From: a virus
Direction: 5' to 3' (one strand)
Virus record (IMG/VR): IMGVR_UViG_3300017613_001314
Coordinates: 1-64,000 of that record
DNA length: 64,000 nt
Below the pieces are notes generated by a model. That model saw nothing but the letters and a program-made list of their open reading frames with translations. It searched no databases and had not been told where the DNA came from. Positions 11,711-12,639 of the stretch are shown here, in pieces (positions within the stretch are counted from its first letter, which is position 1; each line of letters opens with the position of its first letter). The position numbers were made by a program, and so were the translations under genes.

Positions 11711-12451
11711 ATGGTACCGATAGACCCAAAAGAATGGGATAAACGCTATAACGACAAAGATTTTTCTGATATTTGGGATACCAATAGAGGCAAAGGAAAA
11801 GTGGATAGAAGTAGAGTCTGGGGTACCGATGAGTACTTTGCCAGAGTTGAAAAACCACGTGATGAGTGGGATACTGGATTAGAAGATTTTTCTGGGATGA
11901 CTCGGAGAATCAAAAGGAACATAGAAGCAGACAAAGAAAGAATAAAACGAGATGCACGTAGAGCATCACTAAAGGCAAAAGCGGATGCCGAAAGAATAAA
12001 AAATCAAGCAGAGAAAATGGCATCGGATATCAGATCGAATGTGGCACAACAACAGGCTCAAGCCAGAAAGAAACTATTATCGAGTTATAATTTTACAGCT
12101 AAATCAAAAAAGAAGAAACCAAAGAGGAGAATAAAATTGTCTGGAAAAGGAATAGGCATAGGCGGTATGATATTTTGGGGTGTAATAATCCTTAATTTCT
12201 GTGGTGATGATAAAGCTGAGAAAACCAAGGTTGTAGATACATCATCTGACACTAATTATACCGAACAGGTAAAAGAGTCATATGATAAGTTAAAACCCGA
12301 AGCAGAAAAACTTATCAATAAAGCAAAAGCTGAGTTAAAGAAAGTCACAAAAACCAAAACTAAATCAGCACCGGCAGTGATACCGGATAACAATAATGAT
12401 CCTTATGCACAGGATAATGACAAATACGGGAGCACAGACGACAAATGGTAA
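11711..12451 (+). CDS. K/R-rich protein with one internal hydrophobic segment
   Basis: 246 aa with a charged coiled-coil-like N-half and a hydrophobic GIGIGGMIFWGVIILNFCG. Confidence 0.5.
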   Translation: MVPIDPKEWDKRYNDKDFSDIWDTNRGKGKVDRSRVWGTDEYFARVEKPRDEWDTGLEDFSGMTRRIKRNIEADKERIKRDARRASLKAKADAERIKNQAEKMASDIRSNVAQQQAQARKKLLSSYNFTAKSKKKKPKRRIKLSGKGIGIGGMIFWGVIILNFCGDDKAEKTKVVDTSSDTNYTEQVKESYDKLKPEAEKLINKAKAELKKVTKTKTKSAPAVIPDNNNDPYAQDNDKYGSTDDKW

Positions 12452-12639
12452 AATGGATAAGAAATACAAAAGCTTTTACTCTTATTGAGGTGATGGTTGT
12501 TGTTACAATTATCGCAATATTAGCTGTGATAGCAATACCAAATATTATGGGTTATTTGGATAAGAAAAACAGCAAGCCTGCTATAGAACAAAAACATGAA
12601 CAACCAGAAAAGAAAGGAACACATCAAGGAATATATTAA
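12445..12639 (+). CDS. Type IV pilin/pseudopilin-like small protein
   Basis: N-terminus KAFTLIEVMVVVTIIAILAVIAIPN matches the class III prepilin signal and N-methyl-Phe helix (xFTLIELMIVVAIIGILAAIAIP), including Glu+5, with A in place of the usual G at -1. 64 aa. Confidence 0.55.
   Translation: MVKWIRNTKAFTLIEVMVVVTIIAILAVIAIPNIMGYLDKKNSKPAIEQKHEQPEKKGTHQGIY

Follow-up and report, generated by a model that had tools for sequence, protein, structure and literature searches.

A truncated, prepilin-type gene conserved beside gp46 in a distant T4-like phage lineage

Introduction

Phages use type IV pili and related filaments as major receptors, and the same structures serve in secretion and DNA uptake; phage genes that tamper with them shape both the competition between phages and the behaviour of the host. 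The subject of the present analysis is one small gene, at positions 12445-12639 (plus strand) of a 64,000-nucleotide stretch of viral DNA (IMG/VR record IMGVR_UViG_3300017613_001314, positions 1 to 64,000; hereafter the window), which encodes a 64-residue prepilin-type protein, referred to here as the mini-prepilin. Full-length phage pilins have recently been shown to act as anti-phage defences, whereas truncated ones have been observed only.

Truncated PilA-like proteins of ~60 residues were noted in 2026 in six virulent Pseudomonas phages, and either incorporation or inhibition of assembly was proposed for them, their function being untested in that study (PMC12952977). The mini-prepilin resembles these proteins in that it is phage-encoded, corresponds to the N-terminal ~60 residues of a pilin only, belongs to a non-temperate phage and invites the same two hypotheses. 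Compared by description, it differs from them in its origin from an uncultured T4-like lineage, in the Ala residue that precedes the cleavage site (position -1), in its dedicated, apparently co-translated membrane partner and in its location directly before gp46. A tblastn search of 50,697 GenBank phage records returned no match, probably as a consequence of low-complexity masking. The FimU-like minor pilins encoded by prophages of P. aeruginosa phages (P-FimU) are incorporated into pili and block tip-binding phages (PMC12952977). Like the mini-prepilin, P-FimU is a phage-encoded protein of the type IV pilin class, and it uses the host machinery and protects against other phages; it is, however, a full-length pilin with a globular domain, expressed from a prophage and located at the pilus tip, whereas the mini-prepilin has no globular domain and is encoded in a replication cluster of lytic type.

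Small phage proteins of other kinds offer a further comparison. The T4 genes imm and sp (61.3) are exclusion genes that lie inside replication gene clusters, and their products are small, early membrane proteins that act on DNA injection and on the incoming phage lysozyme, not on pili; the likeness to the mini-prepilin is one of size, membrane location and replication-cluster setting, with no sequence or structural relation. Type IV pili are suppressed by Tip and Aqs1, two small phage proteins that are not pilins. PfsE of phage Pf4, a small hydrophobic protein of the inner membrane, binds PilC and blocks pili (PMC8764522). PfsE, Tip and Aqs1 bring about superinfection exclusion through PilC or PilB directly and, unlike the mini-prepilin, have neither a prepilin signal nor pilin homology.

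Results

A class III signal in a phage gene

The mini-prepilin gene starts with ATG and encodes 64 residues including the leader (54 if cleaved after Ala10). Its translation, MVKWIRNTKAFTLIEVMVVVTIIAILAVIAIPNIMGYLDKKNSKPAIEQKHEQPEKKGTHQGIY, divides into the basic, 10-residue leader MVKWIRNTKA (12445-12474) and the mature part FTLIEVMVVVTIIAILAVIAIP, and contains Ala at -1, Phe at +1 and Glu at +5 (codon GAG, 12487-12489). All features of a class III signal are thus found in the protein: a short basic leader, a small residue at -1, F+1, E+5 and a run of ~20 hydrophobic residues. Consistent with this layout, the Pfam model PF07963 (N_methyl) matches with 34.5 bits (E 1.2e-8; curated cut-off 21.2) and the NCBIfam model TIGR02532 with 31.0 bits (curated cut-off 16.3). 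In the six-frame translation of the whole window the mini-prepilin is the only sequence with a prepilin-type motif, so that the match lies far beyond chance. The mature N-terminus, FTLIEV, is of the type IVa or type II secretion-like kind; it has no E-Y and so lacks the Flp/Tad (type IVc) motif (Gly at the cleavage site, then x-x-x-x-E-Y), and Flp families are absent from the Pfam and NCBIfam matches of the protein.

An earlier sequence-only reading of this DNA had proposed a prepilin-type gene, with a class III signal, in a phage. The string quoted there and the Glu+5 of the 64-residue open reading frame (ORF) are present as described, the phage context is clear, and the comparison with pilin N-terminal models on which that proposal was to stand or fall returned PF07963 and TIGR02532, both above their curated cut-offs. 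With high confidence, the mini-prepilin is a genuine gene of pilin derivation.

The mini-prepilin is a truncated pilin

The mature protein begins with the hydrophobic alpha1 helix (12475-12543; F1, E5, A14, P22 and N23), delineated by invariant residues, by AlphaFold2 and by a profile search of the PDB, and continues into a hydrophilic tail (12544-12636; Y27, PAIEQ and a C-terminal KKGTHQGIY), which is predicted to be periplasmic and disordered. AlphaFold2, supplied with the family alignment, models a single helix over residues 2-42 with a pLDDT of ~90 for residues 11-30, while for residues 45-64 the pLDDT falls below 50, in line with a disordered tail of 20-30 residues. In the PDB profile search the mini-prepilin aligns from F1 onwards to alpha1 of Geobacter, Myxococcus, Pseudomonas and Neisseria pilins and of GspG. 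A Foldseek comparison of the single-helix model with the PDB gave no matches, as is expected for one helix, and is hence uninformative.

The best PDB matches (1.2e-12 to 1.6e-8) are entries of Geobacter PilA-N (PDB 2m7g, 6vk9, 7tgg, 9egp), a pilin with a mature length of ~60 residues that consists essentially of alpha1 and carries a similar 10-residue leader, M-x-x-K-[LI]-[RK]-N-x-K-[GA]. This top rank is largely due to the inclusion of the similar leader in those entries, and in the same search the mature chain of 2m7g has a lower score than the pilins of Myxococcus and Pseudomonas. In contrast with the mini-prepilin, Geobacter PilA-N is a bacterial protein with Gly at -1, a helical, aromatic-rich C-terminus and an adjacent PilA-C gene. 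No PilA-C-type partner gene is found beside the mini-prepilin, whose neighbours are SbcC/gp46 and a transmembrane (TM) protein without a family match.

The likeness to longer pilins is restricted to the N-terminus in the same way. The N-terminal 35-40 residues align with GspG, PpdD and ComGC, including the motif I-P-N-[IL]-x-G, but the globular domain of these proteins is absent from the mini-prepilin, and the corresponding equivalog models match residues 1-47 only, with scores far below their cut-offs (GspG, 31.6 versus 88.85; PpdD, 37.9 versus 138; ComGC, 32 versus 75). Six PHROG families are matched (phrog_27437, 11596, 11263, 3433, 13280 and 10597), the matches covering only the N-terminal 25-40 residues; one of these families is annotated as ‘pilin', and three have profiles of 59-72 positions. 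A C-terminal globular alpha-beta domain packed on alpha1-C is not present in the 64 residues, which the AlphaFold2 model accounts for as helix plus tail. The mini-prepilin is consequently a truncated pilin, composed of a class III signal, alpha1 and a hydrophilic tail and pilin-like over its N-terminal 40 residues; the name ‘pseudopilin', which had been suggested from the sequence, overstates the case for a protein without a globular domain.

Conservation and selection

The family is small. Six homologues were found in a collection of 5.8 billion proteins, all of them full length (61-69 residues, 59-89% identity) and all with PF07963, and a profile search of 1.84 billion cluster representatives gave a single cluster at E < 1e-30, namely the mini-prepilin family itself. 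Orthologous DNA loci number eight (the window and the loci labelled L001, L004, L093 and L095-L098), plus three more (L236-L238), and derive from IMG/VR and other contigs of uncultured phages. At the level of sequence the family is new; phage pilin genes, even truncated ones, have already been described.

The length of the mini-prepilin is kept in more than 10 diverged contigs, insertions and deletions among the orthologues comprise whole codons (multiples of three) only, and pairwise dN/dS lies between 0.16 and 0.47 in all 28 of 28 pairs. The gene is under purifying selection. Residues invariant across the orthologues are found in the leader (M-V-K-W-I-x-N-T-x-A), in the mature part (F1, T2, E5, A14, P22, N23 and Y27; those of the helix are F11, T12, E15, A24, P32 and N33 in precursor numbering) and at the C-terminus (H-Q-G-x-Y), where the invariant stretch overlaps with Shine-Dalgarno (SD)-like AAGGA sequences 5' of gp46. 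In pilins, Glu5 serves subunit-subunit contacts and methylation, and a buried Glu5 is unexpected in a generic membrane anchor.

Constraint is distributed unevenly over the gene. In the helix region pN/pS is 0.27 and synonymous change is abundant (pS 0.62), as compared with a pN/pS of 0.65, and thus weak constraint, in the tail region, which indicates that selection acts on the pilin-like part. The leader shows few changes of any sort (pS 0.21 versus 0.62 in the helix), and codons 1-8 (12445-12468) are without a single synonymous substitution over eight diverged loci. Since the overlap with the upstream stop codon accounts for the first 7 nt only of this invariant stretch, the lack of synonymous change in the leader implies that the 5' end of the gene is constrained at the RNA level too.

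Alanine at position -1

From the sequence alone, the Ala at -1 had been considered a feature that may prevent or alter processing by the prepilin peptidase. The comparisons made here do not support an anomaly of this kind. When bacteria were scanned for [KR]AFT[LF]IE[VI]M, at one genome per species, the same Ala-Phe junction occurred in at least 600 stretches; among the matches listed, 316 were confirmed as pilin relatives. Eighty of the matches listed were retained, and they belong to Verrucomicrobiota, Omnitrophota, Sulfuricurvum/Campylobacterales, Burkholderiales, Armatimonadota, Planctomycetota, lineages of the candidate phyla radiation (CPR) and Geobacter. Almost all of these 80 have at least ~109 residues, and many are GspG-like proteins of ~143 residues. 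None of the listed bacterial matches is short or carries an MVKWI leader, and they accordingly supply neither a prophage copy of the mini-prepilin nor a clue to its host. The bacterial Ala-1 relatives span many phyla. The likeness of the leader to leaders of the Geobacter/Desulfobacterota type is too generic to point to a host and was rejected as evidence for one.

Among the mini-prepilin orthologues the Ala-1 codon alternates between GCT and GCG while the residue is kept, an indication that Ala itself is selected. Judging from these comparisons, Ala at -1 appears to be no defect, and many full-length pilins and GspG-like proteins of bacteria have it. In one viral contig, prepilins with Gly and with Ala at -1 adjoin each other. 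A separate observation concerns IMG/VR contigs L005-L012, which encode full-length PVC-type prepilins (DUF1559-like, with an H-x9-DG-type C-terminus); in L010 and L011 of this set the Gly-1 and Ala-1 copies are adjacent.

Genomic setting of the mini-prepilin

The sequence of the window is that of a distant T4-like phage of an uncultured lineage, as judged by a gp55-like late sigma factor (5408-5866), SbcD/gp47, SbcC/gp46 and UvsX (16345-17487). Cultured relatives are lacking: the identities of gp46 and UvsX do not exceed 25-32%, and nucleotide and protein BLAST searches with the region and the ORF against GenBank phages gave no or only remote matches. Ribonucleotide reductase, primase and NAD ligase are encoded farther along the window, in which no tRNAs were found. 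Nor was any multi-TM protein resembling a prepilin peptidase, and the phage therefore encodes no such peptidase within the window.

The mini-prepilin gene lies in a tightly packed plus-strand cluster with gp47, gp46 and uvsX, a recombination cluster of early type. On its upstream side this part of the cluster is bounded by the gene for the SbcD/Mre11-like nuclease subunit (T4 gp47-like; 5883-6863, plus strand; phrog_100, E 4e-65), and on its downstream side by that for the SbcC/Rad50-like subunit (T4 gp46-like; 12649-14826, plus strand; phrog_77, E 1.2e-91), which has an SMC_N domain and a Rad50 zinc hook. The 5.8-kb insert between them contains small ORFs, a phage metallopeptidase, a lipoprotein, a protein related to the major vault protein (MVP) with an SPFH domain, a 246-residue protein and the mini-prepilin. 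The start of gp46 is 9 nt past the mini-prepilin stop in the window, and gp46 is always directly downstream, at 6-10 nt, in the orthologous loci. The next gene, for a DNA methyltransferase (14823-15446, plus strand; phrog_24333, E 1.2e-42), starts within the end of gp46; L004 and L236 lack it at that position, and it is thus a lineage-specific insertion. No terminator-like sites were found on the plus strand between 7.5 and 15.5 kb, and no late-promoter motif TATAAATA near the mini-prepilin; the scans for promoters, terminators and late promoters gave counts at chance level and are used here only for the absence of plus-strand terminators.

Immediately upstream of the mini-prepilin is the gene for the 246-residue partner (11711-12451, plus strand), which comprises a coiled coil and a basic region (cytoplasmic), a TM segment at about residues 143-161 and an 85-residue C-terminal domain, predicted to be periplasmic, that ends in DDKW. 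Searches of Pfam, NCBIfam and PHROG profiles gave no family match for this protein, whose own family comprises just 12 clusters of the protein collection, all of them devoid of Pfam domains. The partner gene is always directly 5' of the mini-prepilin, and the two overlap at a start/stop junction, ATGGTAA (12445-12451, plus strand), which recurs in 8 of the 8 orthologous loci examined and points to translational coupling of the mini-prepilin with its partner. In L001 the gene 5' of the mini-prepilin (131-475) combines a GroES/Cpn10-like N-terminus of ~38 residues with the C-terminal domain of the partner and has no TM segment, yet the mini-prepilin itself is intact and selected. This chimera may be a real recombinant or an artefact of assembly; a GroES gene that could explain the fusion was sought in the window and not found.

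Farther upstream are an 848-residue MVP-like/SPFH protein (9112-11658, plus strand), which matches PF11978 (MVP shoulder; 92.7 bits), PF17795 (Vault_3) and PF01145 (SPFH/Band_7), and a putative lipoprotein with a signal peptide ending in IQGC (8395-9102, plus strand), which is the first gene of the block and has an orthologue in the same place in L004 (53% identical). The MVP-like protein is 73-76% identical in related contigs, where it occurs together with the genes for the lipoprotein and the 246-residue membrane protein, and its gene is upstream of the mini-prepilin in L004, L236-238 and L093. Wherever the context is available, the genes for the MVP-like protein, the partner, the mini-prepilin and gp46 form one block, and relatives from the same lineage that are without the mini-prepilin are also without the block, including the MVP-like gene. 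In the literature searched, viral MVPs are mentioned only in a 2023 preprint on gut phages. A second SPFH/Band_7 membrane protein (40587-41870, minus strand; 427 residues, N-terminal TM segment, 37.6 bits) is encoded elsewhere in the window, which means that the phage has two SPFH-type scaffolds.

Two further gene groups in the window were recorded. Three tandem paralogues at 3286-4971 (plus strand; 183-185 residues, 47-49% identical) have His-rich H-x-H-S-L motifs and no PHROG match, and the first of them also has no Pfam match. At 51649-55710 (minus strand) five clustered ORFs each have a signal-like hydrophobic segment at the N-terminus, and two of the five contain lipobox-like cysteines; two ORFs of this cluster were run against Pfam, and neither matched.

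Short prepilins of other phages

Short proteins are frequent among the matches of the profile search: ~45 of the best 150 have 55-95 residues, and many of these combine a prepilin N-terminus with a polar, acidic tail. In unbiased look-ups of five short prepilins, four were encoded directly 5' of a Metallophos (Mre11/gp47-like) gene, with an SMC_N (Rad50/gp46-like) gene next in line and a 4-nt overlap in most cases, and the fifth was upstream of a Band_7 gene. A search of IMG/VR anchored on gp46 yielded 50 loci in two lineages. Lineage A is of the T4 type seen in the window, and the mini-prepilin is confined to the window's sub-lineage of it. The gp46 of lineage B is 21-23% identical to that of the window, and its gp47 is nearest to ‘recombination exonuclease A' of Herelleviridae (~25%). 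In 17 of the 32 lineage B loci a short prepilin is the ORF directly 5' of gp47; these proteins have 66-94 residues (~230-bp genes) and mostly a 4-nt ATGA overlap with the gp47-like start (L099, L100, L115-L151, L152, L153, L191). Two tandem short prepilin genes precede gp47 in L149/L150 (4448-4980), the second of which is degenerate (GFELVD, with Asp for Glu5). Other positions in phage contigs can likewise harbour short prepilins (L206, L215).

Alignment of the mini-prepilin family with the short prepilins of lineage B by hhalign extends over residues 1-48. A tail motif that seemed to be shared by both lineages (x-I-E-Q ... K-G ... hydrophobic C-terminus) was discarded, as a tail-only hidden Markov model (HMM) performs no better than shuffled sequences (the score of the window tail is equalled or exceeded by 198 of 300 shuffles). 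The C-terminal KG[DE]xNKL of lineage B was likewise rejected as evidence of a protein-level motif or of homology: it coincides with AAAGGAGA ~10 nt 5' of the overlapping gp47 ATG (xTATGA; L099 8199-8234, with equivalents in L100-L153) and is the footprint of a ribosome-binding site and start codon. The tail comparison therefore lends no support to homology of the two sets beyond the pilin N-terminus.

Pilin-like genes are also found directly beside SPFH/Band_7 genes, in differing orders, in L155 (170-1280), L167 (3504-4605) and L234 (2164-3866); the SPFH protein of L234 is 33% identical to the second SPFH protein of the window. An 861-residue protein of lineage B was considered as a possible MVP-like protein, but is not one by BLAST.

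Discussion

The reading favoured here, although it is held as an evenly balanced proposition rather than a secure one, is that the mini-prepilin is made early in infection, is a substrate for the prepilin peptidase of the host and enters or jams the host's type IV filament machines, with superinfection exclusion or host takeover as the outcome. According to this model, the mini-prepilin would be co-transcribed and translationally coupled with early/middle recombination genes and inserted into the host inner membrane with its N-terminus in and its C-terminus out, where the host prepilin peptidase would cleave and N-methylate it. The pilin-like helix, with its E5, could then engage the type IV pilus, the type II secretion pseudopilus or the competence pilus of the host. 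Because the mini-prepilin has no globular domain, it would block or alter the filament in the manner of a decoy, a poison or a ‘bald' subunit, leading to superinfection exclusion or an early takeover of the host. We infer processing, engagement of the machinery and phenotype by analogy, the models being the P-FimU-like pilins, PfsE and the pilins of archaeal viruses.

The same idea has been published for the truncated PilA-like proteins of the Pseudomonas phages (PMC12952977). In favour of the model are the matches to both prepilin profiles, the invariance of F1, E5, P22 and the Ala-1 junction, the stronger constraint on the helix than on the tail, the predicted structure of helix plus tail, the alignment with alpha1 of solved pilins and GspG, the frequency of Ala-1 in bacterial prepilins, the lack of a peptidase gene in the window and the place of the gene in the cluster with gp47, gp46 and uvsX. 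Several observations weigh against this model. The one-genome-per-species bacterial scan yielded neither a prophage nor a bacterial copy of the family. Positive charge flanks the TM segment on both sides throughout the family, for which reason the topology given above is taken from the prepilin signature and not from charge bias. The model also leaves the conserved membrane partner and the MVP-like/SPFH block unexplained, and the recurrence of short prepilins beside Mre11/Rad50 in a second, unrelated lineage hints at a link that it does not predict.

Part of the same evidence could be accommodated if the mini-prepilin were a functional, non-inhibitory subunit that remodels host pili or pseudopili, masks receptor sites from competing phages or builds a phage-specified filament. 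P-FimU is incorporated without loss of pilus function (PMC12952977), the pilins of the archaeal virus SNJ2 hijack host machinery and build dominant filaments (PMC12426801), and bacterial pilins as short as ~60 residues, such as Geobacter PilA-N, are able to assemble and head the PDB matches; the conservation of E5 and P22 is in keeping with such a role. Geobacter PilA-N, however, requires a separate PilA-C, in place of which the downstream gene here is gp46 with no partner of that kind, the tail is weakly constrained and disordered, and a lytic T4-like phage has little time to profit from new filaments, so that incorporation as a working subunit is unlikely, though not negligibly so. The fixed Ala-1 suggests a different target, the peptidase itself, for which the mini-prepilin would be a slowly cleaved and tightly bound mimic, titrating the enzyme and stopping all maturation of pilins and pseudopilins. 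Ala is present at -1 in every orthologue despite the GCT/GCG change, a single base change would give Gly, and the leader is invariant at the protein level; moreover, a P. aeruginosa pilin with Gly-1 changed to Ala was reportedly only partly processed (Strom and Lory, 1991). Against this, Ala-1 is native to hundreds of bacterial full-length pilins and GspG-like proteins, which implies that many peptidases handle it normally, Gly-1 prevails in the short prepilins of other phage lineages, and the invariance of the leader is in part an RNA-level matter. Titration of the peptidase is accordingly given little probability.

The genomic setting, rather than the pilin signature, is the starting point for an explanation in which the mini-prepilin works with the 246-residue TM protein and the MVP-like/SPFH protein in a phage membrane module, or is coupled to Mre11/Rad50, the prepilin signal being a device for insertion and processing only. 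In its favour, the partner is always upstream with the ATGGTAA overlap, the lipoprotein, MVP-like protein, partner and mini-prepilin are inherited as a block, pilin-like genes adjoin SPFH genes in three other phage-like contigs, and short prepilins precede gp47-like genes directly in the 17 of 32 loci of the unrelated lineage and the four of five unbiased look-ups described above. Such a module is about as unlikely as a working pilus subunit: a processed pilin has no cytoplasmic part with which to touch a cytoplasmic nuclease, the mini-prepilin of L001 is intact and selected although the upstream gene has lost its TM and cytoplasmic parts, strict conservation of F1, E5 and P22 is needless for a mere anchor, the tails of the two lineages are no more similar than shuffled sequences, and the synteny may reflect descent and operon packing alone. 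The constraints on the RNA could also be read as the only ones that matter, the ORF being either a pilin fragment that is due to chance or in decay, or a translated leader through which translation of gp46 is coupled to the upstream gene. Both ends of the gene do show RNA-level constraint (codons 1-8, and the SD-like AAGGA in the last codons), and the C-terminal KG[DE]xNKL of lineage B reflects the ribosome-binding site and start codon of gp47. An overall dN/dS of 0.16-0.47, a helix pN/pS of 0.27 in the face of abundant synonymous change, invariant pilin-specific residues and a length preserved in more than 10 diverged contigs nevertheless make the absence of a protein function extremely improbable.

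The juxtaposition with Mre11/Rad50 is suggestive but was noticed a posteriori, and it may be explained by descent within lineages, by tight operon packing and by the T4-type habit of placing exclusion genes in replication clusters. In a broader form, which is quite unlikely, short prepilins would make up a class of phage genes that recurs, has no name as yet and has a functional tie to the Mre11/Rad50 operon in two or more unrelated lineages of large phages and, in the lineage of the window, also to the membrane partner and the MVP-like/SPFH scaffold. Such a tie could, for instance, consist in a phage programme by which the host's type IV filament and DNA-uptake gateway is closed or put to new use in step with the processing of DNA ends. 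If this were true, the class would be more than a sporadic superinfection-exclusion moron.

Returning to the mini-prepilin as a substrate that enters or jams host filament machines, the window adds to the truncated phage pilins a defined and selected family from uncultured T4-like phages, with a fixed Ala-1, an apparently co-translated partner and similar genes beside Mre11/Rad50 elsewhere. The question it raises is whether a bare pilin helix can poison, mask or titrate a type IV filament machine and, should the linkage with Mre11/Rad50 prove functional, it would point to a hitherto unrecognized connection between envelope filaments and phage DNA metabolism.

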